In this document: one piece after another, positions 1 through 20,000 of the stretch | Numbering within the stretch: the stretch's first letter is position 1 | Layout of the letters: each line of letters begins with the position of its first letter | Assembly: GCA_023515795.1 (NCBI GenBank) | Contig: JALGPX010000050.1 | Span: 53,508-73,507, forward strand | DNA from: Amoeboaphelidium occidentale | Lineage: Eukaryota | Direction: 5' to 3' | Length of the DNA: 20,000 bases | Notes under the pieces: generated by a model | Seen by the model: the letters and a program-made list of their open reading frames with translations, nothing else | Databases searched by the model: none | What the model was told of the DNA's origin: nothing | Position numbers and translations under genes: made by a program

Positions 1-1341
1 GTCGGCCATCTTGCAGTAGTAAACTCCTTGCTGGTGGCGGATGGATCGTTGTTTTCAGCATCGGACGATAAGTCAATAATTCAATGGTCGCTGGAGAGAC
101 GCGATATTGTGAGAACATACAAAAGGTATTCGGCCGCTGCACTGGGTCATACTGGCCCTGTTAATGCGATTACTTTTTGCTCTGGACTTTTACTATCTGT
201 CGGAAAAGATGACACGCTTAGAGTTTGGAACATTGACACTGGAAACCAAGTGGATCAATTTCGATACTTTAAGTCTGCTACAGCTGTTATTTGTCATAAC
301 AATATTTCATACGCAGGTAGTGAGGATTTCTCCGTATTAATGTTTGATTTGGAGAAAATCAATGTGCAAAGTGGACCAGAAACGTCCAGAATTAAAACAA
401 TAAGTACCAAAAAGAGGAAACGGTCCAAAAATGTTCGAGCAACCAGGGAAAGCGAAGACTTATCTCAACGCTGGATCGTTCTGATTATTGCTAGCTCGTC
501 AGTATTAGTAATACTCATTACTGGTTTTGTTTTCTACGTATGGAGGTCCAAAATAGCATCCAAGTCCGCCTCGCCTACTGTTAGCAGTACAGCAGATTCA
601 ACTTTTACAGAAATGGATCTTCAAACTGTCGTTAATTCTGTAATGGGTATTTCAAAACACGCGGAGTATATTATTGACAATTCAGTGGTTGCAAAAGTAA
701 AGAAGATTGCAACTGGCGGAGGCGGAGATCTTTTTCTGTGCAAAGTTATGGATCCGCGTCTTGTTAAGACAACTGGTGACTTTGTGGTTCAAAAGTTGGT
801 GTTTGTTAACAACAAGTTAAAGGAAGAGGCTTTTTATCAGGAGGTTGGAATTATGGTTATGCTTTCGTCATTCCCACACTTTTGCAAAATTCTTGGCTAC
901 ACTGAGAAACCGTTATCGATTATTATGCGCTATTACTTAGAAGGATCTCTATTCGATTGGATCAGAAACAGAAGCCTTAGCAGGTCAATCGCAATTCAAA
1001 TTCTACTGGAAGTGTCTAGAGCATTGAAAGTAATGCATTCTAATTATCTGGCTCATTGTGATTTAAAGTCCCAAAATATTCTTGTTGAGATCGTGAATGG
1101 CATTCCAGCTTTCCGTTTGACGGATTTCGGCATCACAGAAATCCTTTCGGATAGAATAATCGCATCGAAGGCTTTTCGTGTTGTCAATTTGCGTGGTCTA
1201 TCAATTCTATATTCTTCACCAGAAGCCTTCGTTTGTTACAAAACGAAACATTACGTAGGTGTTGATTTTAAGAAGTTTGATGTCTACTCTCTTGCATGCC
1301 TGTCGTATGAGGTTCTGACACAAAAATCGCCATGGAACTGA
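1..1341 (+). CDS. WD40-ectodomain receptor-like kinase A (5'-partial): last WD40 repeats, basic linker, TM helix, C-terminally truncated non-RD kinase
   Basis: Frame is open from base 1 (VGHLAVVNSL...), so the TTG at 28 is not the start. WD40 motifs (GHTGPVNAI...DDTLRVWN). Hydrophobic helix WIVLIIASSSVLVILITGFVFYVW at about 472-543. Kinase motifs GGGGDLF, VVQK, FYQEVGIM, HCDLKSQN (1054-1077), TDFG, YSSPE, DVYS. Ends SPWN-TGA. Colinear with the last exons of genes B and C. Confidence 0.92.
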   Translation, partial: VGHLAVVNSLLVADGSLFSASDDKSIIQWSLERRDIVRTYKRYSAAALGHTGPVNAITFCSGLLLSVGKDDTLRVWNIDTGNQVDQFRYFKSATAVICHNNISYAGSEDFSVLMFDLEKINVQSGPETSRIKTISTKKRKRSKNVRATRESEDLSQRWIVLIIASSSVLVILITGFVFYVWRSKIASKSASPTVSSTADSTFTEMDLQTVVNSVMGISKHAEYIIDNSVVAKVKKIATGGGGDLFLCKVMDPRLVKTTGDFVVQKLVFVNNKLKEEAFYQEVGIMVMLSSFPHFCKILGYTEKPLSIIMRYYLEGSLFDWIRNRSLSRSIAIQILLEVSRALKVMHSNYLAHCDLKSQNILVEIVNGIPAFRLTDFGITEILSDRIIASKAFRVVNLRGLSILYSSPEAFVCYKTKHYVGVDFKKFDVYSLACLSYEVLTQKSPWN

Positions 1342-1387
1342 ATTAATAAAACACTACTAAAACGCATTGTCAATGCCTTCAATTAAT
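1342..1387. terminator. 46-bp shared 3' region between convergent kinase genes, with candidate poly(A) signal
   Basis: AATAAA at 1345-1350 just after the gene A stop. Palindrome GCATTG-T-CAATGC at 1364-1376. ATTAAT follows the stop codon on both strands. Confidence 0.35.
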
Positions 1388-4132
1388 CTATTTGAATTTT
1401 GACCACGGTGTTCGTCTGGAAATCATCTCGTAAAGTAAGGATGCCCAAGAGTAAACATCTCCCGCTTTGAAGGTATCCGCACTATCGCTAAAAACAGTTT
1501 TAGCTCTTTGTCTTTTAAATGTCTCAGGTGAAGCATAGGCAAACGATAATCCTCTAATGTTTGAAACATTGAAACCGTTAACCACCAAACTCATAGAAAG
1601 AACTTGAGTGATACCGAAATCAGTCAGAACACAAAATGCAAAACCATCCTTATCAGTATCAATTAAAACATTAGCACTCTTGATGTCTGAATGCGACAAA
1701 TCGTGCTGATGAAGAGCACTTATTCCAGAAGCAATATCGGAGATGAAATGCAGCATGATTCTTTTTGTGATTCTTTTCTCGTTCTTTATGAATTTATCCA
1801 ATGGTCCAAGGCGATAATGCTTCATAAGGATACTCAGAGGCTCTGATCTACAATAACCAATTATCTTTGCAATGTTTTTATGGTTCTTCAGCATTGCCAT
1901 AATGCTCAACTCTTGTTCAAACAGTTTAGCTTGTCTAGCGTTCAAGTTCTGGTTACTTGAATTGGAAATCAATCGCTTTACAACTATGACATTTCCAAAA
2001 ATACTGGTCTTTTCATCCAAAGCATCGGCCAGGTACACCTCACCTCCCCCTCCTTGTGAAAGTTTTGACGTTACTCGAAAGCTTGTATCTGGTACTTCCA
2101 TGTAAGCTGGGACCGAAAGCACTTCCTGGCTAAAGGAAACAAGAGTGGCTGTCTCTGTTGAATACGAATCAGGTCTAGCAGGAGTTACCTTATAGACCGG
2201 CGGAACAGATGGGAGGTAGATTGCTGACTTGAATTGAGCGTAATCACGTCTTTGCCAATATCTTTTATAAAAGAAATAGGCTGCCAATAATATTAAAAGT
2301 AGTGCGAAACCAGCGCCACCAATTATTATATAGATTAAAGTAGACAAATCTAGGAGATTTTCTAATGTCACTGAATTGTCCGGACTAACGCTAGGATTAA
2401 CCGATCGAGAAATCAATGCTCTTCTTGAGGATCTGTTGTCGTCAACATCACTAACAGAAGTTTTGTTAGAGTAAGTAGAACTCGGATGAAAAGTTGTTAA
2501 TGCTGATGCAACAGAAGAAGTTATTTGACTCTCATCCCTTATTGCTGAAGTTTGGTATTCCCCAATCCTTGTTTCCGCTGCTGTTGTTAATATTTCTGTT
2601 GATATTGCTTTCTCTGAAGCAGTTGTCGTGGAAGTTTCTTCTAATTTCGTAGTTGGTGTAGAAACAGGCGGTACCTCTGAGGCAGTTGAAGTAGAAGAAA
2701 ATTCAGACGTAATTTCGGTTGTGCTCGTAGTTTGTGATGTTGTGGTTGTGCTACTTGTAGATCCCACGACTAGTTCTGGTGCAGCAAATTGAAGTTTCCA
2801 AAGATCGCCATTATCTTGCCCGCCGAAAATGTATGACGCGTTCATGCTACTAAAAAATGCAGAACCACCTCTCCATCCTGGTCGATTTTGACTGCTTTGT
2901 ACACGATAGGTCCCGTATTTTGGTGCAATCTTGGAGCAAGTATCATTAATGACAAGGTCCCATGTAAAGGTTTGAACATCAAACAGCCACTCGTCTGAAC
3001 ATTCATAGAAATCAATATTGGCATCCGTATAATCACCTCCTTGAAGCAAAATCTGATTCCTTCCCGCATCGTACAACCAATTTGGAGATATCTTTGCTGC
3101 TGGATAAGCATAGCGAGAGTCAACCGTATAATTCCCAGGATCGTATGCATATGGTGACCCTCCAACAAATGCCCACATACCAGCTGTGATATTGTACATC
3201 CAAGTCTCTGATGTGCAAGCCCAGGTAGTATCCATAGATCCTCTAATTGGGAGAGGTCCACAACCTCCTGTAACAAAAAGGAGGTTGTCATGTGTTACAA
3301 TCATGGATGCTGTTCTTCGTAAACCTGGCTTATTTCCACTACTCAATGCACCATAAGACTCGATTATTGAGAACTCATTGGTGCTTGAGCTCCACAGGGC
3401 AGTAAATCGGTTGTTCGACACGCGATACCTCCAAAGAGTATTGGAAGTATATCCAGAGCCGTCGCCACCAAATATGTAAAGAAGTTTATCATTATGGCTG
3501 TATGCAAATGCAGCGACTTGAAGACCGCCGATATTTGTAGTGTCAGACTCTTCCATGGGAACAAATACAGGCATCTCATCAAGCTCTGTTGTTCCCCCTA
3601 TCCACGTAAACATGTTTGTATCAACATCATAAGACCAAAGGTCATTCAAATAACCAAAGTAGGGGTAAATTGTTTTTCCTATGCCTCCAATTATGAAGAA
3701 CTTTCTCAAATCAGAATCATAGAAGTATATAAACTCCCCACGAGAACCCGGATAAATACTACTGTTTGTATCTCCAATAGAAGTATAAACTCCAACTGCT
3801 TCTACCTGATTGCTTCCGTGAATCCATGTCCAAGCAGAGGAAGCATCTCTTGAGAAATCGCATTTCCACAAATCATTAGTTCTATCATACCCCAATTCAT
3901 AGTCTGAGTATGTATAACCCCCAAATACATATGCAGCGTTTTTTAGATCATCAACGAACATGCCTGAGTAATGCCGTGACCCGACTTTATTTGATGCTAG
4001 ATAGACACCTCTCGATGGCGGATACACTGCGCCTGTTCTATAAGTTTCACCTCCCCACCAGGTCCAATTGTACGGGATAGACTGTGTAAAGACTGAGGAT
4101 GCTAATAGTGGCGCCAACAGTTGAATGATCAT
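1388..4132 (-). CDS. Kelch/galactose-oxidase-type beta-propeller receptor-like kinase, 914 aa, intronless
   Basis: Signal peptide MIIQLLAPLLASSVFTQ. Kelch-like repeats (YVFGG...NDLW, FIIGG...NDLWSYD...W, LYIFGG...NTLWRY, LFVTGG, LLQGG, YIFGG). Ser/Thr-rich stalk. TM LIYIIIGGAGFALLLILLAAYFFY-KR at about 2267-2338. Kinase motifs GGGGEVY, VVKR, FEQELSIM, HSDIKSAN (1670-1693), TDFG, YASPE, DVYSW. Ends TPWSKFK-TAG. Confidence 0.93.
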   Translation of the reverse strand: MIIQLLAPLLASSVFTQSIPYNWTWWGGETYRTGAVYPPSRGVYLASNKVGSRHYSGMFVDDLKNAAYVFGGYTYSDYELGYDRTNDLWKCDFSRDASSAWTWIHGSNQVEAVGVYTSIGDTNSSIYPGSRGEFIYFYDSDLRKFFIIGGIGKTIYPYFGYLNDLWSYDVDTNMFTWIGGTTELDEMPVFVPMEESDTTNIGGLQVAAFAYSHNDKLLYIFGGDGSGYTSNTLWRYRVSNNRFTALWSSSTNEFSIIESYGALSSGNKPGLRRTASMIVTHDNLLFVTGGCGPLPIRGSMDTTWACTSETWMYNITAGMWAFVGGSPYAYDPGNYTVDSRYAYPAAKISPNWLYDAGRNQILLQGGDYTDANIDFYECSDEWLFDVQTFTWDLVINDTCSKIAPKYGTYRVQSSQNRPGWRGGSAFFSSMNASYIFGGQDNGDLWKLQFAAPELVVGSTSSTTTTSQTTSTTEITSEFSSTSTASEVPPVSTPTTKLEETSTTTASEKAISTEILTTAAETRIGEYQTSAIRDESQITSSVASALTTFHPSSTYSNKTSVSDVDDNRSSRRALISRSVNPSVSPDNSVTLENLLDLSTLIYIIIGGAGFALLLILLAAYFFYKRYWQRRDYAQFKSAIYLPSVPPVYKVTPARPDSYSTETATLVSFSQEVLSVPAYMEVPDTSFRVTSKLSQGGGGEVYLADALDEKTSIFGNVIVVKRLISNSSNQNLNARQAKLFEQELSIMAMLKNHKNIAKIIGYCRSEPLSILMKHYRLGPLDKFIKNEKRITKRIMLHFISDIASGISALHQHDLSHSDIKSANVLIDTDKDGFAFCVLTDFGITQVLSMSLVVNGFNVSNIRGLSFAYASPETFKRQRAKTVFSDSADTFKAGDVYSWASLLYEMISRRTPWSKFK

Positions 4133-4333: not shown

Positions 4334-4816
4334 TCATGATCCACGACCGCCTCCATTGCCATATCCACGACGAGGTTGCGGCGGTGGTGGAGGTGGGCGA
4401 CGTGGTGAAGGTGGACGAGGAGGTGGTGGAGGAGGCATGCGCGGTGGAGGTGGGGGTACATGTGGTGGCGAAGTTGTCATTGGTGGTGGCGGAGGCACAA
4501 CAGTAGAAGTTTCAGGCCGTGACAGGGTGCTGCTCGTTGGTTGAGGAGGTGGAGTACTGCTTGTTTGAGTTGGTGGAACTGGTGGAACCAAAGTTGTTTC
4601 TTGTGCTGGATATGATATAGATACAGTTGTTGTCGGACCTACTGGTGGAAGAGGCGTCATGTACGTGACAGCTGGTGGAGATGGAATATGTGTCGACAGA
4701 TCAGGAAGAGCAGACGTTTTTCGTGCTGAACCAGAACAAGGCGCAGCTCCATTCGCGTCGGGAGCAGCAAATGTTGTCAGTGAAAGCAAAGTTGAAACAA
4801 TCAGGATGATCTTCAT
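4334..4816 (-). CDS. Small secreted proline/threonine-rich (extensin-like) protein, 160 aa
   Basis: ATG start and clear signal peptide MKIILIVSTLLSLTTFA. Pro/Thr/Ser-rich body, poly-Pro runs with Arg, and C-terminal RRGYGNGGGRGS. No TM or GPI-like hydrophobic tail. Confidence 0.8.
   Translation of the reverse strand: MKIILIVSTLLSLTTFAAPDANGAAPCSGSARKTSALPDLSTHIPSPPAVTYMTPLPPVGPTTTVSISYPAQETTLVPPVPPTQTSSTPPPQPTSSTLSRPETSTVVPPPPPMTTSPPHVPPPPPRMPPPPPPRPPSPRRPPPPPPQPRRGYGNGGGRGS
4375..4497. repeat. Low-complexity (GGN)n tract encoding poly-proline on the minus strand
   Basis: Runs of ggt/gga/ggc triplets, GC-rich relative to the rest of the window. Confidence 0.75.
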
Positions 4817-5756: not shown

Positions 5757-8700
5757 ATGATGATCATCCGAATGTTCATATCTTTACTGTCATTACTAAG
5801 CTTAGTCTCTTTGGTTTCAACGCTGCAGCATGAGAAGAGCTTTGTTTTTGATAGTTCTGCCTCTAATGTTGTAGACATAGCGCTGTACAATCGGTCATTG
5901 CTCATAACAGCTTCAAATGCAGTAGTCCAGAAGGATATTGAAACAGGCATTTTTCTTAGAAAATTTTCTGCGCATTCAGGCAAAATTCGTAGTTTTTTGG
6001 TTGTCAATGGCTCTATAATGATAACCTCAGCTTGGGACGATATGATCATCGTTTGGGACTTGGCTACTGGCTCAATTCTGAGGAGAATATGGCTGGAAGC
6101 CTTAAATACATATCCTTCGAGCATAAAGTTAGAGAGCAATAGTTTGTTTGTATGTGGACTTGATGGTAGGGTAAGGATTGTGAATATGATGTCTGGTAGA
6201 GTTGTTCAAACAACCTGTAATTTCTTTCTTGATTTCTTATGATTTCTTTAGCCCTGAACGAAGAAGTAAATGTAATTGCTGTTAAAGATGATAATTTTTA
6301 TGTCGGAAAACGAGGAATATCATCTCAGTTGGAAAAATATTCTACAACTTCCAGATCTTTACAACTGATGTATGTGGGCCATAAAGATTCTGTCTTCAGT
6401 TTGTCTCTGCAAGAGGGGTTGCTTTTTTCTGGCTCATATGATACCAACATTGTCTGTTGGGATGAAATGAATGGACAAATAATCCGTATATATGAAGGCC
6501 ATCCGGCACCAATTCAGGTTATTTCTATTTTTGAAAATTATTTGTATTCCAGTGGTGAACAAGGTATTATATTGAAATGGAATATTGATTCCGGAATCAT
6601 TGAAACAAGCTTTCCGGCTCTTCATGGAAGCACCATTTGGTGTTTGGCGTTTGAGAGCGGAAGTTTGTTCTCAGGGTCTATTGATACAACTGTTGTCCGG
6701 TGGGATGTAAACTCTTCATCCGCACTTTTTTCATATGAGGGTCGCATAATCAAGCTTGGCTGTCTTGTTTTGTGGAAAAATGCCGTTATAGCTGGAGGTA
6801 ATAATCCACTATTGTCGATTCAGGACAAGTCGCAAGATTCTGTTTCACCAGTCGAAATTACGTCTGGGCATTTCGGTGATGTTATCTGTATGATATTACT
6901 CGATGACACTCTTTTTTCAGGAAGTACCGATACGACCATTCGCCGCCGAAGTTTGATCGACTACGCTGATTTGAAAATTTATTACGGTAAGAATTTGCCC
7001 ATCAGGATTTAAATTTTATAGGCCATTCCAATATTGTTAGTTCGTTGGCTTTAGACGAAAATTACATGTATTCTGGTTCTTATGATTCTGTGATTAAACG
7101 TTGGAATATATCAACCGGATCTGTGGATAAAGAGTATATTGGTCATACAGATTTAGTCTGCGGTATTCAAGTGAAAAGAGAGTTTCTTTATTCTGCTTCT
7201 TTTAATAATGATTTGAGAGTTTGGGATAAAGAATTGGAGATCACGATCAATGCTTTTCAGTGTAAGTTTGTACCGCGAATTAACAGTTTAGATTTCAAAG
7301 AAGTGTTCTGCATCTTCGTTTATGATGATTTTCTTATTGTGGGAACATTTGGTATCGACATTATTTCGACCTCCACTGGTGTACTGTTGGCTGGACAAAA
7401 AGGTTTAACACGGAAGTCTTCACCACTAATTTTATAGAAAATACTATTTGCTTTACAATTATAGCTACAAAGTTGCTTGTTTATTCAGGGCACGGCGATG
7501 GTGTGATAAGAGGAAGAGATCTGATGACTTTAAATGTTTTGCAATCGTTTCAGGGCCACAAAGATAATGTGATGTCACTTTGTTTGGATGAGGCTGGTAT
7601 CTTATTTTCGACGGGGTTTGATGGCTCTATTAAGAAATGGAACATGGCTTCCAGAAGAGTTTCTTTTTCATATGAAAATCGAAATGGTTCTGTAACAGCA
7701 TTGGTTGCAACGAGTGGACTCTTGGTGGTCGGAACAAGGCAAGGATTAATCAACTCGTTTGACATACGAACTGCGTACATAATCAAGTCCACAGCTCACC
7801 ATCAAAGTTCTGTGACATCCTTGACTATATATGATGGGATGATCTACTCAACTGGGAGGGACGGGATTGTTCTTGCATTTCGTCCGGCTGATACCTCGAT
7901 CTCGGATGTTTTGTACGATACAGAGACTCTCCCTATCGCAAGCGCGACTCTCAACATGTTAAATTTGATAATAGTCAGAGGTGAGAACGAGGTTATTTTT
8001 TTACCCAGGACGAACTCAAGTAGTTCAGTGAGAAGTCTTAATTATGCTTTGCCAATTGTGAGTATCGCAGCCAATGATGATATGATATTTGCTGGCACAA
8101 AGGCTGGGTCGATTGTCGTTTGGAGCGCCACATCTTTGCAGACTTTGTTTTATATGGAAGAACACACTTCTCAAGTCAATTATCTTTTGCTGACAGATTC
8201 TTCGCTCTATTCCGCATCAAATGACAAAACCGTCATCAAATGGTCTGTAGAGCAAAGACGAAAGATGATTGTGTTTAAAAGATTTTCTTCGACGGCACTT
8301 GGACACTTGGGCCCCGTGAATTCTTTATCTTTGTCCGGCGATACTTTGTTTTCTGCTGGTTCAGATTTATCAACTCGGCGATGGAATGCACAAACAGGCC
8401 GCCATGAAGATGTGTACTTTGGAGCCACAAAGTCTGTAATGTCTGTTTTTTGCTTCAACGGATCTGTTTTTGCTGGTAGTGAAGATTTCTCGGTGCTGAT
8501 GTATTCACGTAACCTTCCGTTGAATGCCGCAACTCGAAATGCGATTAGCCTTTCAACAAAAACTAAGCGAGGGGTCAGAAGAAAGATTGTTTCGAGAACT
8601 AATTACTCTGGCTCTGAAAATTCACAAACTGTATTTTTAGTTGGTGGAATCGTTGCCTTATTGATAATTGCCGTTACCGCTATTTGGGCATTATTCTATT

Positions 8701-9500
8701 GTTCATCGAAACCAAGTATTAAGCAGATTGAGAAACATGGGTTGTTTATACAGGAATTATCAGAAATTACTACTGATTTGGAAACGGTTGTTAACACCGT
8801 TGTCGGCTTATCGAAACATGCTGCTTACATGGTGGCGAACTCAAACGTTGCAACTATTAAGAAGCTTGCATCTGGTGGTGGAGGAGAGATATTTTTGGCT
8901 CGAGTTATGAACGCCTTTTTAACAGAAAAGACCGGAAATCTGGTGATACAGAAGATAGTTTTCATCAAGAACTCCAAATCAGAGGAAGCTTTCTACCAAG
9001 AAGTCGGGATAATGATCATGTTATCTCCGTTTCCGAACTTCTGTCGTATAATCGGACTAACAGAAAAACCTGCGTCGATGATCTTGCAGTATTATCCTGA
9101 CGGTTCATTGCAAAGCTGGATTCAAGGAAACAGGTATGACCGAGGTGCTATCGCAAAAATTTCAAAAGAAATTTCTTCTGCTTTGAAAATTATGCATTCG
9201 CATTACTTGGCTCACTGTGATATTAAACCTCAGAATGTTCTGATTGAAATTGTGGAGGGAATTCCCACATGTTTTGTAACCGATTTCGGTATTACTCAAG
9301 TACTATCTGATAAGATCCTGGCATCTCGTGATTTTCAAGTGACTAATCTTAGGGGATTATCAGTACCTTATGCTGCCCCAGAAGCATTTTCCTGTTTCAT
9401 AAAAAGAGAGTTTTTTGGAGTTGACTTGAAGAAATTTGATATTTACTCGTTCGCTTGTGTAGTACTAGAACTTCTAACTAGAAAGATTCCGTGGTGCTGA
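5757..9500 (+). CDS. WD40-ectodomain receptor-like kinase B, join(5757..6216,6252..6986,7022..7261,7292..7402,7438..9500), about 1202 aa
   Basis: Four consecutive ORF-track pieces join in frame after removing GT-AG introns (exon sum 3609 nt = 1203 codons). Signal peptide (MMIIR)MFISLLSLLSLVSLVST; the start could be a slightly later Met. Long WD40 array. TM VFLVGGIVALLIIAVTAIWALFY at about 8631-8699. Kinase with HCDIKPQN (9213-9236), TDFG, YAAPE, DIYS. Ends IPWC-TGA. Confidence 0.9.
6217..6251 (+). other. Spliceosomal intron B1, 35 nt, phase 1
   Basis: GTAATT...TTTAG. Removal fuses ORF 5757 to ORF 6239 in frame (T|CC = Ser). Same position as intron C1. Confidence 0.88.
6987..7021 (+). other. 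Spliceosomal intron B2, 35 nt, phase 1
   Basis: GTAAGA...TATAG. Removal restores the WD40 GH dipeptide (KIYYG|HSNIVSSL). Confidence 0.9.
7262..7291 (+). other. Spliceosomal intron B3, 30 nt, phase 1, in-frame and stop-free
   Basis: GTAAGT...AATTAAC...TTTAG. Hidden inside ORF 7045-7437, but at the same position as the obligatory 32-nt intron of gene C. Confidence 0.75.
7403..7437 (+). other. Spliceosomal intron B4, 35 nt, phase 1
   Basis: GTTTAA...CACTAAT...TATAG. Removal joins to the frame of ORF 7473 (G|AA = Glu). Same position as intron C3. Confidence 0.85.
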
Positions 9501-9993
9501 TTAATCTTTTGGAATAGGAATGTGGTCAAAATGACAATAAAATGAAGATTTTCCGAGTGCGGGAAATGCTATTGGGTTGCATTACCCTGTCCTTGGTTAA
9601 GTTTAACCTGACCCATTCAACCCGTTTATTACAGGTTAAACTTTACATATTGTATTATCTCGATAGTCTGACCAGATCAGTACCTGAAGAAAAAGCTCTC
9701 TATGACCGAACGCTAGTTGCTTGAAATGTTAAATAGTCTTTTGCGATGGCAGATAATATTGGGAAATTGTAAACACTGCTAGCCCAATGAGCCAAAACCT
9801 CAGTTTTTCTGGAAGAGTAGGACTGTCAAAGTATCTTGTTCTTTCGACTTGAGCAGCAACAGAGGTGACATCCGTTTTGGAGCGTTTTCTCTTCATAAAG
9901 TTTTCATACGCGCTTATTGGGTTATAAGAACCTGTTAGAGTAGGGTTTTCTTCTAGCGGCTTTTATCTTCCTTCGTTAAATTGTCGCTAACTA

Positions 9994-11265
9994 TTAATCC
10001 TTTGACAATTTTGGCCACTTTAACCGTGCCGTTGGAGTCTTGGCTGCTGCATCAGAATCACTTGCATATTCCCTTAAAGTTAAAAACTTTTTGCAAGCTC
10101 TGCGGAATTTAGTCGAACACTGTGGTTTGAGCAGCTTCTCAATATCTTTTCGAAGGGCATCATTCCGAACAAGCCCTTTGGGAAATAAAATATCACGAAG
10201 TGTTTCATCAATGATACCAAGAATTAGATAGTCATTTTCGTCACATCGGTATCGCCAGTCCCTAGAAGGAACATAGAACCTCCATTCTAAACAATTCTTC
10301 AGAATATCTACTTGTCCCTGAAAGAATTCATCATATTGCACGAAACAACTGAACGAACTGATCAAATCGCTCACAAAGTCGTTAAAGAATAAGTCGTAGT
10401 TAAACCTTCTTTTACCAATAATCTCTTTAAACAGGAACTTGTAAAGTTTGGCTAGTCTCGGAAGATTCTTTGGGCAACAGTATTGATTGATGAAACTGTG
10501 ACATTCGATAATGTTGGGTGTCCTGAGTTGCGGAATTAGACACGAGAGATTTTTGATTCCAATATCGTAATCAAGGCAACCATCAACAACCATGTCCATA
10601 GTCCTAGAAACAACTTGTATAATCACCTTTTGTTGAAAACAAGCATAATTATTCTTGCGAGCAAAATCCAAGTATGAGAGCCACCGCTCAATATCTTCCA
10701 GATTTTCAATACAGCGCCGCCCGAACGTAAGATACCGATTTATATCTCTGTAGAAAAGGTCTTCAAAGACATGCCAATACACTGTTTTTGTTAACTCTGG
10801 GTTTTCCTCTCTTAGCTTATGTACACGGTCTTGCAAATCTTGAATCGTAATGAAATCTGAAACTTTGATTTGTTTGAGGTGAAGGGTAGAAAATACGCGT
10901 CCCAGTTCATTTCCAAGGCATTCATGTTCGCAATTAGTTAAATCACTTGTAAATGATTCAGGTTTTTGACTTACATGCTTGTTCTGTTTATAGAAGAATC
11001 TAGCGTTATGCAACGGATCTTTATACAACCTCTTCACGACGTTTCCCCAGTTTGGAATATTTTCCCAATTATCGTGGACATTTTGGATAGCGTAATTTGG
11101 AGAATGTCTGGTAAAGTACGCTTAGTAGAATGAAACGTCAGAGGTAAGCACCAACACTGTTGCGCTCGACTTTTGAAATGATACCAAATCATAGAAGCCG
11201 AGGAACAACGCGATTAGTCGTAGTATCTCTGGTGGCAGGCTTAATAGCGACAAGTTTCTGAACAT
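9994..11265 (-). pseudogene. F-box protein gene with one in-frame TAA at 11122-11124 (nonsense allele, sequence error or unrecognised intron)
   Basis: ATG at 11265 is in frame with ORF 9994-11037 and reads MFRNLSLLSLPPEILRLIALFLGFYDLVSFQKSSATVLVLTSDVSFY*AYFTRHSPNY...WGNVVKRLY. LLSLPPEILRLIALFL..DL matches the F-box consensus. The C-terminal 347 aa are not recognised. Ends TAA TAG. Confidence 0.65.
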
Positions 11266-11494
11266 TCAGTATGAATTCTTTACTTGTGAGCAATGTAAGT
11301 AAGAAGATAATGTTTACGCACTTTTATGAGTCATGTCTTTCTAAGTGAACTATCCTAAATATAAGCCATGAAGCAAGCTTTCCCATATCATGATCAACGC
11401 AAATCTTGATGAAGTTCAAAAGCTTCGGCTGATGGTTCGACTGTGTCAAACTTCTCTTGGCAACCTGTTGTTTCATAAAAATCAACTCCATAGT

Positions 11495-14400
11495 ATGAGA
11501 CTTCAGGTTTTGTATGGATGTATGATCATGCTATGCTCTTTCATAGTAGGAAGTTTAGAACATGAAAAGAGCTTCTTTCTTCAAGATGGAGCTTCTAATG
11601 TGCTTGCCATTGGTATTTACAGAGACTCACTGCTGGTGACTGCATCAAACGATGTTGTTCAGAAGGACATTGAAACTGGAATCCTCCAAAGAACCTTTAG
11701 AGCTCATGATAAAACTGTGTATTCCTTCGTTGTTACAAATGATTCCAGGATGATATCATCTGGTTATGATGACATGATGGTCGTTTGGGATCTTGTTACA
11801 GGATCGATTCTCAAAAGGATTTGGTTAAGAGTACCAGATACAAGGATAGAGAGCTTAGCTGTAAAGAATAATATTGTCAATGCTGGTGGCCTTGATAACA
11901 AAGTAAGACAAGTTGATTTGGTCAGTGGAAGGATCATCAGAACAATAGGTACTTCCATAACTTTGCGATAGCTTAATAGTTTTGTAGAGCTCGATGGTTA
12001 CGTATACAGCATTGCCGTTGGTAATGAGCACTTCTTTGTTGGAAAGCAAACCTCTCCGAATGTTTTAAGATACTTGATTCAAGGAGGAACTGCAAGAATG
12101 AGCTTGGATGGTCATACCAACACTGTCTTCACACTCTTCTGGTCTAACGATATCCTTCTATCGGGATCTGCTGACAAGAATGTTATTTGCTGGAATGCAA
12201 GGAGCGGAAATATCATAAGAATCTTAACAGGCCACTCTGACGGTATTTACGCAGTTGGTCTGTTTGAAGGATTTGTTTATTCAGCAGGATTCAATCGAAT
12301 TGTATTCAAGTGGAATATCGATAATGGAGAGATTGTAAAGAAGTTTGATGATCTCCATGCTATTGTGATCAAGTGTTTCGCGTACAGACCATCAGAACTT
12401 TTTACAGGCTCTATTGATACTACAGTGATAAGATGGAATGCAATATCTGGTGAATCAATATTCCGTTATATAATGAGAATTAAGAAATTAAGGGCCGTTG
12501 CTGCATGGAAGAACTACGTCATGAGTGCAGGTGAAGATATTGAAATCAATATTTGGGATGTAGCAATCGATAGCATTGAGCCTATTGCGGTGATAGTCGA
12601 TCATATTCTTGCTATTAACTGCCTCTCAGTTTATGACGATTTTCTCTATTCGGGAAGCTCTGACACAACGGTGAAGCAATGGAACCTCACTCAATTTGCT
12701 CTGAATAAGATTTATGAGGGATATCCTCTAACAATCATTTCTCTAACAGCAGACCAATCTTATGTTTATGCATCAGGATTTGCGAGACTTATCTATCAAT
12801 GGAATTCTTCATCGAGTGTACTAGCCGGCCGTTTTGAGGGCCACAGTGGTGATGTGAGTACCTTGAAACTTAGCAGCAGTTTGCTTTTCTCTGGATCGAA
12901 TGATCAAACTGTCAGAGTTTGGAATGTACACTCGAAACAAACTGAGAAAGTTTTTAATTGTAAGCCTTTACCAGATACTAACCTTCGGTAGCGGTTGATC
13001 CTATTAATGATATTATAATTGACGGAGACTTACTTGTTTCAGCCACGGTTGATGGCATAGAATCATTTTCACTTGCTTCCGGCGAATCTTTGGTTTATCT
13101 AGAAGGTTTTGATAATTTAAAATTTGAAGCTCATTTTTAGAGTTCATTGTCTGCGGCTGCGTTGTATCTCTGCGAAATCGCTTGTTCACCGGTCATCCAG
13201 ACGGTATCATCAGAGTTAGAGATTTGAGCACTCTAACAGTCCTTGAATTATATCAAGGTCATTCGGATTTCGTGTTTGCACTTTGCTTTGATTCCTCATT
13301 TAACCTTTACTCAACAGGGTTCGATGGGAGCATCAAAAAGTGGAACATGGCAACAAGAAGGGTTGCGTATTCTTTTGAGAGTCGCTTCTCTTCGGTAACC
13401 ACTCTGGCCGCTGATGGGCCGATCCTGCTGGTAGGTTTAAGAGGCGGTAGTATTAACGCCTACAACATCAATGATGCCTCAGCTTTATATACCATTTCGA
13501 TTAATAAGCAGGCTGTTTCATCATTATTGGCTTTAAATGGATCAGTTTACGGAACAGGCCTGGACGGGCTTTTGGTGAAATTCCCGGCGTTCCTTCTGAG
13601 AAATATCTTTACAGTTTACAGCTCTAAAGATGAACAATTACGAAGTGTCTTATTTAATAGCCTTTATTTGGTTGTGTTATTAGGCGAAAGCAAAGCTTTA
13701 TTTTTCTCAAATGACCAAGTTGTGAAGACTGTTGATTTGCAAATAGCTTTGATTTGTATGACTTCAACCGAAAGTTTCCTTTTGGGAGGTTCGAGATCTG
13801 GAGCAATTTACTCTTGGAACATGGATACTTTTAAATTGGAATTTGAGTTGAAAGGTCATTTAGCTCAGGTTAATGATATTCTTGTTGTTGGACAACGGCT
13901 TTTCTCGGGTTCAGATGATAAAACTATCATTCAATGGTCTTTAGATGACAGAATCGTTGGAAATGTCTATCAAAGACTTTCCGCAAATGCTCTAGGGCAT
14001 CTTGGCCCTGTGAATGCATTATCATACTGTTACGGAACGCTGTTCACTGCGGGCGCAGATTTGTCTGCTCGTCGATGGAACACTCAAACAGGAAGGCATG
14101 AAGATGTTTATTTTGGGTTCTCAAAAGCTGTAACCACGGTATTATGTCATAACAGTTCGATTTTCGCCGGGAGCGAGGATTTCGCAGTGCTAATGTTTCA
14201 GCCCTCTTTCAATGATTTATCACAAGATTCAACCATTTCACGGACCCTTATTTCTACTAGAAAAAACAGAGTAACAAGACTCGTTCAAAGATCTCAGTCT
14301 ATTGGGTCCAGCGATTCCCCTATTTTGTCGATTATTATTGGGGCAATTGTTTTAATTATTTCATTACTTTCTTTGACTTTCTTTTTATTTTATTGGAACT

Positions 14401-15194
14401 CAACTAACAGAAAACAGGCCCCTGATATTAATTCTAGCTCTGCGTTCGACTCAAGCATAACAACAACCGATTTACGTACGATCGTTAATTCCGTCATGGG
14501 AATTTCAAAGCATGCATCTTATTTAATTCCTTCTTCGATGATTGCCGGAATCCGGAAACTAACAAGCGGTGGTGGTGGTGAGCTTTTAATCGCTAAAATT
14601 ATGGATCCAACCTTGCAAAAGAAATTCGGAGACACAGTAATTCAGAAAATTGTATTTATTAGGAACAAAGCGAATGAACAGGCATTCTTTCAAGAAGTCG
14701 GAATTATGATCATGCTGTCTTCTTTTCCTCATTTTTGTCGAATCATTGGATATACTGAGAATCCATTATCCTTAATTTTGAAGCTTTACCCTCAAGGTTC
14801 TCTTTCAGAATGGTTACACAAACTCCAAGGTGCATCAAAATTTGATGTGAAGCTCTTAAGAGAACTTGCTGAAGCTATACGTATAATGCACTCGCATTAT
14901 TTGGCACATTGCGATATTAAGCCTCAAAATGTCTTGATGCAAGTTGATAACAGCGTACCGTCGTGCTACTTGACAGATTTCGGTATTACACAAATATTGT
15001 CAGACGAGATTCTCGCATCCAAAACTTTCAACATAATCAACTTGAGAGGCCTTTCTGTATTCTATGCGTCGCCCGAGGCTTTTACCAATTTTAAATCAAA
15101 GATGTATTTGCAGACCGATTTCAAGATGTATGACATTTACTCTTTTGCTTGCGTCATATTCGAAGTTATAACACGCAAGGTTCCATGGAGTTAA
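11495..15194 (+). CDS. WD40-ectodomain receptor-like kinase C, join(11495..11948,11988..12959,12992..13105,13141..15194), about 1197 aa
   Basis: ATG 11495 gives signal peptide MRLQVLYGCMIMLCSFIVGS followed by LEHEKSF (gene B has LQHEKSF). Exon sum 3594 nt = 1198 codons. WD40 array. TM ILSIIIGAIVLIISLLSLTFFLFYW at about 14322-14396. Kinase with HCDIKPQN (14907-14930), TDFG, YASPE, DIYS. Ends VPWS-TAA. Confidence 0.9.
11949..11987 (+). other. Spliceosomal intron C1, 39 nt, phase 1
   Basis: GTACTT...GCTTAAT...TGTAG. Contains the in-frame TAG at 11969-11971. Removal gives RTIE|LDGYVYSIAV, aligning to QTTS|LNEEVNVIAV of gene B. Confidence 0.85.
12960..12991 (+). other. Spliceosomal intron C2, 32 nt, phase 1
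   Basis: GTAAGC, a perfect TACTAAC branch site (12976-12982), then GGTAG. Opens a 114-nt exon (VDPINDIIIDGDLLVSATVDGIESFSLASGESLVYLE) absent from the ORF track. Confidence 0.9.
13106..13140 (+). other. Spliceosomal intron C3, 35 nt, phase 1
   Basis: GTTTTG...AGCTCAT-TTTTAG. Removal joins to the frame of ORF 13182. Confidence 0.85.
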
Positions 15195-15362
15195 ACTATC
15201 TGGTTGTTCTAATCGTTTCCTCGTTGAAATAAAAGAAATTTCTGACCATAGGTTATAATCAAACAGATTCTCTTCTAACTTGTAAGATCGCGAATGGAGC
15301 TTCATTTCCCAACAATAGACCAGAGTTCTGATATAAACTCGGCACAGAAAGCGCAACTGTAA

Positions 15363-16043
15363 ATCGGCTTTCTTATTGAGAGTTCTTCCATCGCAAAAGT
15401 CAAGAAGATTGCTTCTGGTGGTGGCGGAGAGTTGTTCTTATCGAAAATCATGAATCTTTCTTTAGCCGGAAAGGTTGGCGATGCAGTAATCCAGAAGATT
15501 GTCTATACCAAAAACACAGCCGCGGAAGACGCGTTCTATCAAGAAGTTGGTATTATGATCACTCTGTCAAAATTTCCACATTTCTGTCAAGTTATCGGAT
15601 ACACAGAGAAGCCTCTTTCCATGATTTTGAAGTATTACTCCGAAGGCTCCTTTTTTGACAGGTTGCATAAGAATACAAGTGGCAAAACGATTAGGATTAA
15701 GATCTTGAAAGAAATTGCGCAGGCTCTGAATACCATGCATTCCCACTATTTAGCACATTTTTGTCTAAAGTCCCAGAATGTACTTATTGAAGTTTTTCAG
15801 GGTATCCCTTGTTGTTATTTAACAGATTTCGGAATTACACAGATTCTTTCAATGAACATTGTGGCTTCCAAAATGTTCAATGTGACTAATTTACGCGGGT
15901 TGTCTGTCCATTATGCTTCTCCAGAGGCGTTCACTAATTTCAGGGCAAAGTTTTATGAAAGAGTTGATTTCAAGAAGTATGACATGTACTCTTTTGGTTG
16001 TGTCTTGTATGAAGTACTGATTAGACGATCCTCATGGTCCTAA
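15363..16043 (+). pseudogene. Orphan kinase-domain paralog without ectodomain or TM and lacking the catalytic Asp (pseudogene fragment or pseudokinase)
   Basis: Homology begins just after an in-frame TAA (15360): IGFLIESSSIAKVKKIASGGGGELF. No ATG between that stop and the G-loop. Catalytic loop reads HFCLKSQN (15756-15779) instead of HCDLKSQN. Ends SSWS-TAA at the same truncation point as the other kinases. Confidence 0.75.
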
Positions 16044-17519
16044 AGCAGGTTGCTGCAAGATAAGATAAGGCAAGCTTTTCTCAACAATTAATGTTGCATA
16101 TTGATATTACTAAATGATCGTTCATTTCCGTAATATATCCCTCTGCTGAGATGTTCTGCAAATCGACATTATTTTTTAGGGCTGCAGCTCTTTCTCCTTA
16201 AAACGTCTGCCATGCTAGCATGTTTTTCTGCAATGACTGTCTTTAGAACTGTTACTGTTACACTCTCACACTCTTATGCTTTCATGCTCTGGACAGTTTT
16301 ACTATGCGTACACTTCTTTTCTTTTGTCACGTAATCATTTGCTCGTCTTATTCGAGCGCGTCAAGCGGGGTGATCGTGTATTTGCGCATTTGGAGGATGT
16401 TGACTTGTTTGATCGTTATCACTGGTTGCAAAGGCAATCTCGCCGCATTTATTGAAAATATAGAGTCAGATAATGTTACCGTATGAGTGTACTAAGGATA
16501 GTCCCTTGATCAAGGTTGACAAAGGCTATTCACTGAAATCCATCACCAACGCCTGCTCGTTAGCACGCTGAATATCGAATATCTCTTTATGATAAATGCT
16601 ATGAGATTTAAGAATACACCGATAAATCGTTAAGTTCTTGTCTCTAAACTGGAGAGTACCCACAGCGTCATTTTTTCTAAATGACGTGAAACGCTGATTC
16701 CCGACATGCTGGGGATCTTTATCTCTCACAGGAAGTTCTATCATGCTAGGCTTGTCAACTGGCTCCTTTAGACGATATTTTACCACCTAATTATGATTCT
16801 TATCACTCTAGTTTCACCAAAGGTCTGGTTTGGATCACTGCAAGCTTCTAAACGCCGTAACCGCTCAATAGAGCCTCCTATCCCGTACCATAGTCGATTC
16901 TGTACTCACTGTTCATTTTTGTATAGTCTTATAGCGTGAAACTTAAACTAGCTTGCAGCATCTGAACCTCGCACTTCTCAAAATTTGCAGAGGCAGCACG
17001 AGAACAATGTATCATACCAAAAAGAACATAAACGAAAAGCATCATCACTCTGAAATTATCGAACCTAAATGTTCCCATGGGATGTTGTATTAATTTGGCG
17101 AATCATGTTAGTTCAGGGGCAGAATTGCCTGATTTAAAGAGATTGTTGAAAAACGATATATACTTCTCACCAAGGATGTCACACTCCATAAATATCTAGC
17201 CGGTGCAATGTGCTCAACAAGAAAGAATCAAAAATTGATTGTCGATAAGTGCTAAGGGCCTTCTGTATTGCACTCGCCAACAAGCTAGCGTGCGATTGTC
17301 TGGCTTGGTCAACCATTAAATAACCGCTGCGGGAAACTTCATCAAAGTGAATTTTTTAAGCAATCATTTCACGCCGCCTGTAAAAATCGAACGAAGTCTT
17401 CTGCTAGTCCAAACAACTCATTCAGCGCCGCTGATCGGTTTCAAACAGAAAGGCTATAGTTTCGAGACTTAAGTTCCTTTTCTTCTTGAACTTGAACAAG
17501 TCAACAACTCATTTCTTCA

Positions 17520-20000
17520 ATGATCATACTTGTCTGGATTACTTTAGCCATTCTGGTTGCTGGCAACAGTGATAATTCTCTTGCAAAGTATCTCACAGCT
17601 AAGAAGCCTTCTTTCCAAATCAATGAGTTGTATAAACATGGAATGTACGAAAACTTGTTGATCGGCTCCATCGCTGGTAACATCTACATGGTTGATATTG
17701 ATACTGGTATTCTGGTCAAAACTATCACAGGTATATTTTGAAGTTCCTACTGACACCATAGCCTCTTTCACATCCACTGGCGGGACCGGCATAATGTCAT
17801 CTGTTCAAGTTATTGGAAAACACTTGATCATCTTCTATTCAGACAGTGCTATTCAGCAATGGAATCTTGATACTGGAGAGATCGTAAGAGAAATCAAGCC
17901 TTCAAGGAGTAGCATTCTCAGCGGGGAATGCGTTTGGCATTTTGATTTAGACCTTGTCTTCTGTAGCTTGGCAAACGGCTTTGTAAGAAAAATCAACATG
18001 GCCACCAAAAGAATTGAGACTGAGTTCGATGCCCATGATAACTATTGTAATGTTCTTGTCAATGGATCTCTTCTGTACACAGCAAGTTTTGATGGTCTGG
18101 TCAAGAAGTTTGACTTGTTTGGAAATTTGTTGAGAACGTATGAAGTGGCACTTGGATATGCTAATCTTGCAGCGTTTGAAGGTGATTACTTGTTCGTTTA
18201 TTACTACAATATTGAATTCGACCGAAAGGTTCGCATAGTCAGATGGAACCATATAACAGGAATCCCTGAAGAATTTCCAGTACCCGTATCGTACATTCTA
18301 GATCCAGTGAGGGCCTCTAAAGACTCTTATATTTGTTTTGGCTTAGGATCCTTAGGTTTGAATTTTATTCAGTTGTCCAAATCGGATTTGTCAATTATAA
18401 GATCAGATCTCCGCGACCAGCTCCATTCATTTGCAGCGCCCTACTTCAGCAATGGTGAACGATTTTTCTTTTTACCAAACTCTACTATTTATGAAATCAA
18501 CATTTCAAGCGAAGGAGTCAATTTGAGAAACACACTGGATGTGGAAGTATTCAGTTTCCCGTTCGCTGATCTTGTTGTCATCAACGACACAACAGTTCTT
18601 GTGGTTTTTTCTCAGTCCAGTTCAGTTAACTTTCAGGCAAAGTTTCTTGATACCCGCTCAGGGATTTTCTCCGATGGTATTGAAATTTTCAATGATCATC
18701 ATCAATTCCAGAAATCAGGAGACGTTCTTATAGCTGCCGTTGGACAAAAAGTTGCAGCGTACAACATTGCTGATTTGACATTGCTTTGGAAATCTCCAAC
18801 AATCGCTCCGCAAACGATTACTACATTGCGCTATCAAGAAGGCTTAATTTACTTTACCACCCTAAACTACGCTGGTTGCTATAATGCTTCGACATTTGAA
18901 AAGATTGGCTTACTTTACTTTGATGATGGCCTCTACGGAACACCAGCATTTCTTGATCAGGTATTCTACAGATTATATACAGAGTTTTCGATGTTTGCAT
19001 ACGATTTCACTGATGGGCGTATGTTGATTAAATATGATCGAATGCCGAACTTCTTTATTCATGCTTTAATTTACGAAGGGTATCTTTACGTCGCAAATAC
19101 AGACAGTTTTATCTATAAGTACGATATTTCTAGTCCGGATATTGTTCTTGTTTTTTCCGGCCACACATTTGAGGTCTCAGTCATACTAATTGATGGCTTG
19201 TTTATGTACTCTGGATCTGCAGATCAAAAAATCCGTAAGTGGAACATCGAAAATGGTGAATCCCTCTTCATCTATCATGGACACAGTGAAAGGATTGATA
19301 AGTTATATCTTCATGACAGAAAACTCTTTTCGCTGACAAGAACAGAAATCAAGATTTGGGATCTGACTAGAGATCGTTTGTTGGCGACACAATTTGAAAA
19401 ATCATCTGTTCTGATTTCACTGTCCGTTTTTCAGAACGGGCTATTTTCTTGTTCTGTAGATGGAACTATTACGTCCTGGAATATTGATCAAGGTCGCAAA
19501 TATTCTGAACTCAAGAAGAAGACACCAGGGAAGTTTTTTGTTACAGTACAAAGTTTGAATAACTCTTTGGCCGTAAGTTATAACGATGGTTCTATCGTGC
19601 AATACTTCCTTGAAGAGAACGCAACCTCTAAGATAATTTCAAACCCCGCGGTGGTCGAATTATCGAACTTTGTTTTATTTAAAGATTTACTTTTCCTATT
19701 TGGAGCTGCAGAGGGTCTTGCTATTAAGAATTTAACGAGCGACATTGTACGTAGAATCGAGATTAAGAATTACGTCTCAAATTCTCTCCTAGTTACCGAT
19801 CAGTTCATTTTCAGCGGGAACAATGATACTTCAATCACTAAGTATGATGCTAGCTCTCTCGGTTTGCTCAGAACTATTAAAGCCCATACCGGATCTGTCA
19901 CAGTTCTAGGACAGTTTGAAAATGAGCTCATATCAGGTAGCGAAGATAATTCCTTAAGAACATGGAACCTCGACAATTTGAATCTGATTTCGGATCTAAA
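17520..20000 (+). CDS. Divergent secreted/ectodomain WD40-repeat protein D, join(17520..17730,17762..>20000), 3'-partial; probably another receptor-like kinase
   Basis: Signal peptide MIILVWITLAILVAG. After a 31-nt intron the frame is open without a stop from 17762 to the window end (read by hand). WD40 repeats GHTFEVSVILIDGLFMYSGSADQKIRKWN, GHSERIDKL...IKIWD, AHTGSVTVL...SGSEDNSLRTWN. TM and kinase are not within the window. Confidence 0.85.
17731..17761 (+). other. Spliceosomal intron D1, 31 nt, phase 1
   Basis: CAG|GTATAT, branch-like TACTGAC (17748-17754), then CATAG. Removal joins the signal-peptide exon to the long open frame (G|CC = Ala). Confidence 0.88.

Follow-up and report, generated by a model that had tools for sequence, protein, structure and literature searches.

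Receptor kinases of the window end after helix F

The DNA studied here is a stretch of 20,000 nucleotides from the aphelid Amoeboaphelidium occidentale (contig JALGPX010000050.1), referred to below as the window. The question that it raises is whether its receptor-like kinases, which all seem to stop just after subdomain IX, are truly truncated and, if so, how a kinase could work in this form. Aphelids are algal parasites and relatives of fungi. The features of the window are as follows.

1..1341, + strand: last exon of gene A, with the end of a WD40 ectodomain; the gene starts upstream of the window
475-531 and 715-1341, + strand: transmembrane helix and truncated kinase of gene A (Pfam, hydropathy)
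1279..1341, + strand: gene A from helix F (DVYS) to the stop, 20 residues, with the R/K-x-x-P-W motif at the end
1342..1387, no strand: gap of 46 bases between the convergent stops of gene A and the Kelch gene; AATAAA at 1345-1350
1388..4132, - strand: Kelch gene (K), 914 aa in a single exon; Kelch propeller and Thr/Ser-rich stalk behind a hydrophobic N-terminus (read by eye as a signal peptide)
2282-2338, - strand: transmembrane helix of the Kelch gene, followed by the truncated kinase (Pfam, hydropathy)
5757..9500, + strand: gene B, WD40 receptor kinase, 1202 aa; introns 6217-6251, 6987-7021, 7262-7291, and 7403-7437 (frame open once spliced)
11495..15194, + strand: gene C, WD40 receptor kinase, 1197 aa; predicted introns 11949-11987, 12960-12991, and 13106-13140 (from GT..AG and frame; no joints seen)
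14331-14387, + strand: transmembrane helix of gene C; AATAAA 34 bases 3' of the stop
15297..16043, + strand: fragment D, copy lacking its 5' part; in-frame stop ahead of 15363
17520..20000, + strand: 5' part of gene E, a WD40 ectodomain that continues beyond the window end

A single-pass receptor layout, with an ectodomain, one membrane helix, and a cytoplasmic kinase, was found for genes A, K, and C (Pfam, hydropathy); the membrane helix of gene B was called by eye, as were the signal peptides of all window genes. The 446 residues of gene A in the window are 100% identical to a stored protein of 1170 aa (P0043), and the kinase of the Kelch gene belongs to another subfamily (about 33% identity to gene A). 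The introns of gene B were skipped by contigs of runs X3, X4, and X7 and retained in the DNA run X2; an AATAAA lies 36 bases 3' of its stop. Fragment D has neither ectodomain nor membrane helix, reads HFC where HCD is expected, and terminates at the same Trp+1 position; it is likely, from these features, a decaying duplicate. Gene E shares 42-44% identity over 724 residues with P0072 and P0074 and, because both of these end in a truncated kinase, it is likely the sixth member of the family.

The Pfam Pkinase matches stopped at position 198 (A, K, B, and C) or 197 (D) of 263. The original prediction had described the same end for every kinase, and its termini were all read again in the sequence: QKSPWN with TGA at 1339-1341 (+ strand) for gene A, RRTPWSKFK with TAG at 1390-1388 (minus strand) for the Kelch gene, RKIPWC with TGA at 9498-9500 for gene B, RKVPWS with TAA at 15192-15194 for gene C, and RRSSWS with TAA at 16041-16043 for fragment D. 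The predicted spacing of 46 bases between the stops of gene A and the Kelch gene was also read from the sequence. Nothing in gene A beyond the helix F segment is equivalent to alphaG, alphaH, or alphaI. The kinases are truncated one turn after helix F, without helices G, H, and I, and the GHI helical subdomain, including the Arg that partners the APE Glu, is absent, as seen from the Pkinase end, the lack of an alphaG-alphaI match, and the end of the structural model (see below).

The truncation is found across the family

At 50% identity, the family falls into more than 100 clusters. Of 91 cluster representatives, 79 ended at most 10 residues past the terminal Trp, and the loss, with a Pkinase end at 197-198 in the window, is therefore real and family-wide, as had been proposed. 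By comparison, 86 loci were fetched as controls (6 metagenome loci whose kinase, at 31% over 113 residues, is unrelated, and 80 distant viral kinases); of the 75 unrelated kinases scored among them, none stopped within 10 residues of that site, the shortest tail being 39. An end at most 3 residues past the terminal Trp was found in 59 of the 91 representatives, which as relatives are non-independent draws, against about 21% expected from the stop frequency in the non-coding DNA of the window; Trp+1 was the exact end in 81 of 158 proteins. From the first matches (n = 78), 8 were left out as partial, fused, or earlier-ending models. From the new representatives (n = 139), we excluded 7 multi-domain unrelated kinases, 4 full-length proteins, and 10 without helix F, and among the 118 that were counted, 27 had no Trp in the span searched. 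The closest named homologues of the window kinases were A. occidentale MP638 proteins, and the family appears so far to have been named from aphelids only.

A few full-length family members are present in two aphelids, A. protococcarum and Paraphelidium. The statement that every kinase is truncated thus held for the family within the window and failed for the lineage. Word-limited searches retrieved no full-length member among the named A. occidentale proteins, and none could be linked to the organism of the window. The full-length proteins P0235 and P0236 have an N-terminal membrane helix with about 25 outer residues. The motifs G-x-R-P, C-W, and R-P, which are TKL motifs of subdomains X-XI, were present in nine full-length relatives and missing from the truncated members. 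Against solved structures, the family profile matched BRAF, CTR1, IRAK4, and RIPK1 in 59 of the best 60 matches listed (E 8e-32 to 8e-30 for the TKL structures), rank 1 being an EGFR fusion with two domains, scored by their sum. The family formed one branch (97-98) in a tree with only a few outgroup kinases and no curated TKL set. Concerning the number of losses, free trees required 2 to 5 changes, and a single clade of truncated members was not rejected (AU p 0.57). The likely ancestor was a full-length receptor kinase of TKL-like type in early aphelids, and the family then expanded, with many ectodomains.

Catalytic and activation-segment residues are retained

The original prediction that the beta3 Lys, alphaC Glu, catalytic Asp, DFG, and xPE motifs are kept in the four intact window genes was borne out, fragment D being the sole departure from catalytic-residue conservation in the window. 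Across 126 truncated sequences, mostly 25-35% identical to gene A beyond its own subfamily, all six catalytic residues (Lys, Glu, Asp, Lys, Asn, Asp) were present in 123. Taken singly, the beta3 Lys (125/126), the catalytic Asp (125/126), and the DFG Asp (126/126) were kept, which is not the pattern of pseudokinases, and the catalytic-loop Lys was found in all 126. The activation segment is complete, with about 33 residues from DFG to xPE; the P+1 Ser/Thr, the Tyr/Phe, and the Pro of xPE were each retained in 125 of 126 sequences and the APE Glu in 119. An RD motif was found in only 4 of 126, the family being non-RD (HCD). As judged by sequence, these are TKL-like, non-RD receptor kinases that have kept the activation segment and lost the GHI subdomain.

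The cut probably bares a hydrophobic face

The monomer model of the gene A kinase had a pLDDT of 92, including the last residues, and aligned to BRAF 449-657 with a Z of 21.2 and an rmsd of 1.8 over 189 residues. It ended at BRAF residue 657, versus 720 for a full-length relative, about 63 residues being missing with nothing aligned in their place. The positions of alphaE and alphaF that presumably touch the GHI subdomain were assigned by analogy with PKA. In alphaF (248-256, 258-259), a charged residue was found in 0-3 of the 126 truncated sequences; in alphaE, positions 152, 155, and 159 were charged in 0-2 of 126, versus 29-43 for the neighbours 149, 153, 156, 160, and 163. Because helix F stayed uncharged all round, something likely still covers it. 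The idea that a partner or dimer covers the cut face is in this way indirectly supported by the residue pattern.

Comparison with known systems

The likeness to TKL kinases (BRAF, CTR1, IRAK4, RIPK1) comprises a fold that aligns from the N-lobe to helix F and the HxD[LI]KxxN catalytic loop; unlike them, the aphelid family is non-RD (HCD), with a GGGG loop and a long alphaEF insert, and ends at BRAF 657. Plant receptor kinases have a complete C-lobe, unlike the truncated aphelid kinases. The plant non-RD kinase EFR with BAK1 resembles the aphelid family in that there are many ectodomains per kinase type and signalling is paired (PMC10317173, excerpt); by analogy, we propose that the full-length aphelid members might serve as a co-receptor. 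Bud32/PRPK, RIO, and ELKs also have no canonical GHI, and in PRPK helix F is partly exposed, on one side, and binds a partner, this side being important for OSGEP binding (PMC7864929, excerpt). These kinases have no activation segment and no APE, and they carry their own helices after helix F, whereas in the aphelid kinases the activation segment, APE included, is retained in full and nothing follows helix F. SteC and OspG have a depleted C-lobe yet are active, OspG requiring a bound partner (from part of PMC13395416), but they are bacterial and soluble and are not receptors, and SteC has no APE-like motif.

The activation segment and the GHI are described, in an excerpt of PMC3415842, as co-evolved elements that define ePKs and are joined by a buried Glu-Arg pair. 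The known trimmed kinases have neither element; in the aphelid family the activation segment is kept and the GHI is gone. With the full-length sister proteins as natural controls, what the GHI is needed for, a question of long standing, becomes directly testable. The question bears on host sensing by the closest fungal relatives, which are pests of algal cultures. It is very likely that we are dealing with the same gene family as the aphelid receptor-like kinase expansion (Mikhailov et al. 2022, Curr Biol 32:4607), the paper to which differences in receptor-like kinase sets are credited in an excerpt of PMC10608142. We found no description of the truncation in the literature searched, which was covered at the level of listings and abstracts and mostly without subscription papers, among them the aphelid genome paper; the latter may already mention it.

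How the truncated kinases could work

The retained residues suggest that these proteins are likely active Ser/Thr kinases, whose bared, hydrophobic helix E/F face is probably covered by a partner on receptor clustering; to this explanation as a whole we give about an even chance. The beta-propeller ectodomain would take a ligand, probably a cue from the host alga or the environment, and the receptors would pair, the candidate partner on the bared face being another receptor copy or a co-receptor. Because the alphaG docking site is missing, proximity would have to bring the substrate to the kinase; candidates are the juxtamembrane linker, which is rich in Ser/Thr and has a conserved Thr, or a full-length family member, almost devoid of an ectodomain, in the role of shared co-receptor. 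Because the kinase is non-RD, assembly would control it more than phosphorylation of the activation loop. Since single mutation of Glu208 or Arg280 strongly lowers the activity of PKA (PMC3415842, in the part consulted), loss of the whole GHI could leave a weak enzyme. Against a partner, the monomer model is confident without one, and part of helix F could be shielded by the long alphaEF helix together with the P-W tail.

Ligand-driven pairing might also complete the fold, the partner filling the empty G-H-I groove with helices and restoring the Glu-Arg pair in trans, so that completion itself would be the on-switch; we regard this as rather doubtful. The partner in such a switch could be a full-length co-receptor that is shared, a second copy, or a small, separate protein.

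It is unlikely, in our view, that the monomer is a self-contained minimal kinase, stable and active alone, with the alphaEF helix and the R/K-x-x-P-W tail lying over helix F. The confidence of the monomer model up to its last residues speaks for this, as does an Arg/Lys six residues after the APE Glu, present in 94 of 121 truncated versus 2 of 8 full-length sequences (Fisher 0.004, not phylogenetically independent) and in 97 of 119 sequences with the APE Glu kept versus 3 of 7 without it (p 0.03). The basic residue would perhaps replace the lost Arg of subdomain XI, but Glu and Glu+6 sit on different faces of one helix. The long alphaEF helix was rejected as a compensation because the full-length relative has it too (helix 204-215), and the lost residues have no aligned replacement, although trimmed bacterial kinases such as SteC do work as monomers (PMC13395416, same excerpt).

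We consider it quite unlikely that the proteins are ATP-driven switches or ATPases that act on no protein substrate, a role that has been proposed for Bud32/PRPK (KEOPS) and RIO. The catalytic residues would then be retained for ATP turnover driving a conformational signal. Such a role would fit the loss of the main substrate-docking subdomain (PMC3415842, excerpt) and the ATPase activity of PRPK and Rio2, also devoid of a canonical GHI (PMC7864929, excerpt), but the full activation segment is kept, unlike in PRPK and Rio2, and so are the P+1 Ser/Thr that positions the peptide and the catalytic-loop Lys.

Completion of the fold in trans, by a separate alphaG-alphaI protein or by the C-lobe of a full-length member giving the helices and the Arg, appears improbable. 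It would account for the APE Glu being retained though its usual partner is gone, the groove remaining uncharged, and the very exact cut at Trp+1, and full-length relatives do exist in two aphelid genera. Yet no alphaG-alphaI-like sequence was found in the 20-kb window (best score -1.5 bits), the truncated proteins analysed showed none above 5 bits in their N-terminal parts, and a full-length kinase occupies its own GHI helices, so that a swap would be needed.

Transcripts across the stop codons

That a conserved intron, trans-splicing, or stop read-through supplies subdomains X-XI is highly improbable and already largely refuted. In its favour, most homologues are DNA gene calls, which would stop inside an intron, a GT stands immediately before the gene C stop, and one RNA-type contig departs from the window at 1247. 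Against it, 1840 splice products with a new tail of at least 35 residues were enumerated and none scored above 5.7 bits (14-41 bits for held-out true tails), read-through with stops set to X gave at best -1.5 bits, 31 of the 81 Trp+1 proteins have Asn, His, Asp, or Tyr as the last residue, none of whose codons can contain a GT donor, three different stop codons are used, and the stop is retained in spliced-run contigs and in Paraphelidium transcript-type proteins. The original prediction that the truncation is not a missed cis-intron thus stood, no splice product or frame in the window encoding alphaG-alphaI and a spliced-run contig crossing the gene A stop.

This contig, X7 record 20 (3197 letters, depth 56), aligned without gaps on 1-1366, through the Trp codon and the stop of gene A; it runs 25 letters beyond the stop, under the 31-letter threshold, and ends in the gap between gene A and the Kelch gene, which fits a 3' end. 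X7 is a run whose contigs skip GT..AG introns, the RNA nature of the runs, all from one study, being deduced from splicing. The Paraphelidium proteins P0121, P0126, P0130, and P0239, which bear Trinity-type names, terminate 1-37 residues past the Trp, with no alphaG-alphaI match where scored. An altered genetic code was discarded in view of the long genes without in-frame stops, the use of three stop codons, and a read-through that matches nothing. A contig across the gene B stop had a depth of 2.4 and may derive from a convergent neighbour or from DNA. The contig departing at 1247 is X3 record 8, which carries 101 unaligned letters.

Kinase domains ending after helix F

Four intact receptor kinase genes (A, the Kelch gene K, B and C) lie in the window, together with a kinase fragment (D) and the 5' part of a probable sixth gene (E). 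Among named proteins, the closest homologues come from Amoeboaphelidium occidentale, with up to 75% identity. All five window kinase domains stop 1-4 residues past the Trp that follows helix F, and the Pfam Pkinase match is partial in each of them, ending at position 197-198 of 263. The original prediction had listed the termini, the stop codons and a 46-base gap between A and K, all of which were found in the window sequence; its statement that every kinase ends early holds for the five window domains, but full-length family members exist elsewhere. AATAAA lies 4, 36 and 34 bases past the stops of A, B and C, respectively, and none was found within 120 bases after the stop of K or D. The window introns (6217-17761) are tiny (30-39 bases) and none interrupts a kinase domain. 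Fragment D is likely a pseudogene. The glycine-rich loop is GGGG, without an aromatic residue at its tip, in most of the kinase family.

Features of the window kinases
715-726 (A), 8873-8884 (B), 14568-14579 (C), 2042-2053 (K): GGGG of the glycine-rich loop
625-627: juxtamembrane Thr, residue 29 of alignment A2
15297-16043, plus strand: fragment D, a 5'-truncated copy immediately following gene C, carrying an in-frame stop and lacking the catalytic Asp

Modelled as a monomer, the cytoplasmic part of gene A gave a confident fold (mean pLDDT 92) without alphaG-alphaI, whose last elements are helix F (243-260) and a short tail. This model aligned with BRAF over 449-657 (Z 21.2, rmsd 1.8, 189 residues), while that of P0179, a full-length relative with helices G, H and I, aligned over 449-720 (Z 29.9, rmsd 2.2, 255 residues). 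Thus, about 63 residues are missing in A, with nothing aligned instead. Both models contain the long helix that follows the APE motif; this helix is therefore older than the loss.

Spread and origin of the truncation

Among the 78 first matches, 70 end 70-84 residues past DFG, the other 8 being partial, fused or ending earlier. The best 150 representatives of 50% clusters included 7 unrelated multi-domain kinases and 4 full-length family members. The Trp was present in 91 of 118 further representatives bearing helix F; the protein ended within 10 residues of it in 79 of these 91 (within 3 in 59), as compared with none of 75 unrelated kinases taken from 86 loci, which confirmed that the loss is family-wide. 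The 4 post-Trp tails of at least 40 residues in the Trp-bearing representatives had no alphaG-alphaI match. P0167, from A. protococcarum, has a longer, Gln-rich post-Trp tail without such similarity; such a tail would be expected if this species reads TAA and TAG as Gln. The ectodomains comprise, among others, WD40, Kelch, NHL and ephrin-receptor-like repeats. All named members are aphelid (A. occidentale, A. protococcarum and P. tribonemae), but of the 30 clusters that were looked up, most lack an organism name, so that the family may extend beyond aphelids.

Nine full-length relatives were found. Two of them, P0235 (A. protococcarum) and P0236 (Paraphelidium), have a membrane helix close to the N-terminus and, by eye, about 25 outer residues, hence almost no ectodomain; they might serve the truncated receptors as a shared co-receptor or be their substrate. 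Truncated and full-length members formed one branch against the outgroup (support 98 and 97), and a single loss was not rejected (AU p 0.57). The best solved-structure relatives of the family profile were BRAF, CTR1, IRAK4 and RIPK1.

Search for a hidden exon

We built an alphaG-alphaI profile from 21 true tails, with which held-out full-length relatives score 14-41 bits. The best score in the window, in six frames with stops as X, was -1.5 bits, and the best of 1840 enumerated splice products (GT/GC-AG and AT-AC, new tail of at least 35 residues) reached 5.7 bits. Furthermore, among 81 proteins ending at Trp+1, the last residue is Asn, His, Asp or Tyr in 31 and Val in none; these 31 ends cannot hide a GT donor, because the codons concerned leave no room for GT. 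The earlier view that no intron had been missed is thus supported for cis-introns.

Contigs of X3, X4 and X7, three sequencing runs of a single study, are about 96% identical to the window and skip the gene B introns at GT..AG, unlike those of the DNA run X2; we therefore took the three as RNA. Record 20 of X7, gapless on 1-1366, crosses the Trp codon and stop of gene A and ends 25 bases later. Record 13 of X3 is gapless on 9374-9617 across the gene B stop (depth 2.4), though it may have another origin. The same truncation occurs in four Paraphelidium tribonemae entries whose Trinity-type names point to a transcriptome. Two signals weigh against this transcript evidence: record 8 of X3 departs from the window at 1247, its last 101 letters unaligned (gene A contigs of X4 and X7 continue), and contigs on K terminate at or ahead of its last codon. 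We consider an artefact of gene structure very improbable, and the truncation itself almost certainly real.

Conservation and possible function

The beta3 Lys, alphaC Glu, catalytic Asp, Lys and Asn, and DFG Asp are jointly kept in 123 of 126 truncated sequences; the P+1 Ser/Thr is found in 125 and the APE Glu in 119, while only 4 are RD kinases. Such near invariance speaks against decay and favours a role in phosphorylating peptides. Helix F positions 248-256 and 258-259 are charged in at most 3 of the 126 sequences, and alphaE 152, 155 and 159 are likewise uncharged among neighbours that are often charged. Going by the contacts in PKA, several of these positions would lie against helices G, H and I, so the bared face is likely kept buried by something. 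At APE Glu+6, a basic residue is enriched in truncated members (94 of 121 versus 2 of 8 full-length sequences); it might substitute for the lost Arg, although the helix geometry is unfavourable. Of 147 aligned sequences, 76% have the juxtamembrane Thr about 30 residues ahead of the glycine-rich loop; it is a candidate phosphorylation site, possibly a target of the kinase.

We give an even chance to the proposal that these are putatively active non-RD receptor kinases that would have lost their docking subdomain, would receive substrates through receptor pairing and may use the bared helix E/F face to bind a partner. A self-contained monomer is unlikely, a switch based on ATPase activity slightly more so, and true completion of the fold in trans the least probable of these three. 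The original interpretation is supported in part: it holds for a family-wide truncation without hidden exon and for the conserved catalytic motifs, while the bared face lends indirect support to a partner or dimer.

The activation segment and GHI (alphaG-alphaI) are presented as two co-evolved hallmarks of eukaryotic protein kinases in PMC3415842. Neither the activation loop nor a canonical GHI is present in PRPK and Rio2 (PMC7864929), whereas the present family has kept the activation segment; SteC has a depleted C-lobe without an APE-like motif (PMC13395416), while the present kinases mostly retain the APE Glu. Titles and abstract openings yielded no description of a kinase family that retains the activation segment but lacks GHI; Mikhailov et al. 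2022, cited on aphelid receptor-like kinases in PMC10608142, may note the truncation. Some non-RD receptor kinases still require activation-loop phosphorylation, according to PMC10317173.

Other features of the window

4334-4816, minus strand: small protein (about 160 residues) lacking a Pfam match; its N-terminus is hydrophobic and it contains long proline runs
9994-11270, minus strand: 375-residue open frame that has no Pfam match

Short contigs of the spliced runs map to the small-protein gene. Upstream in the open frame, a piece near 11200-11265 may, judged by eye, be the start of an F-box. The non-coding-looking stretch 16100-16680, with several contigs per RNA-type run and high summed depth, is possibly a repeated element.
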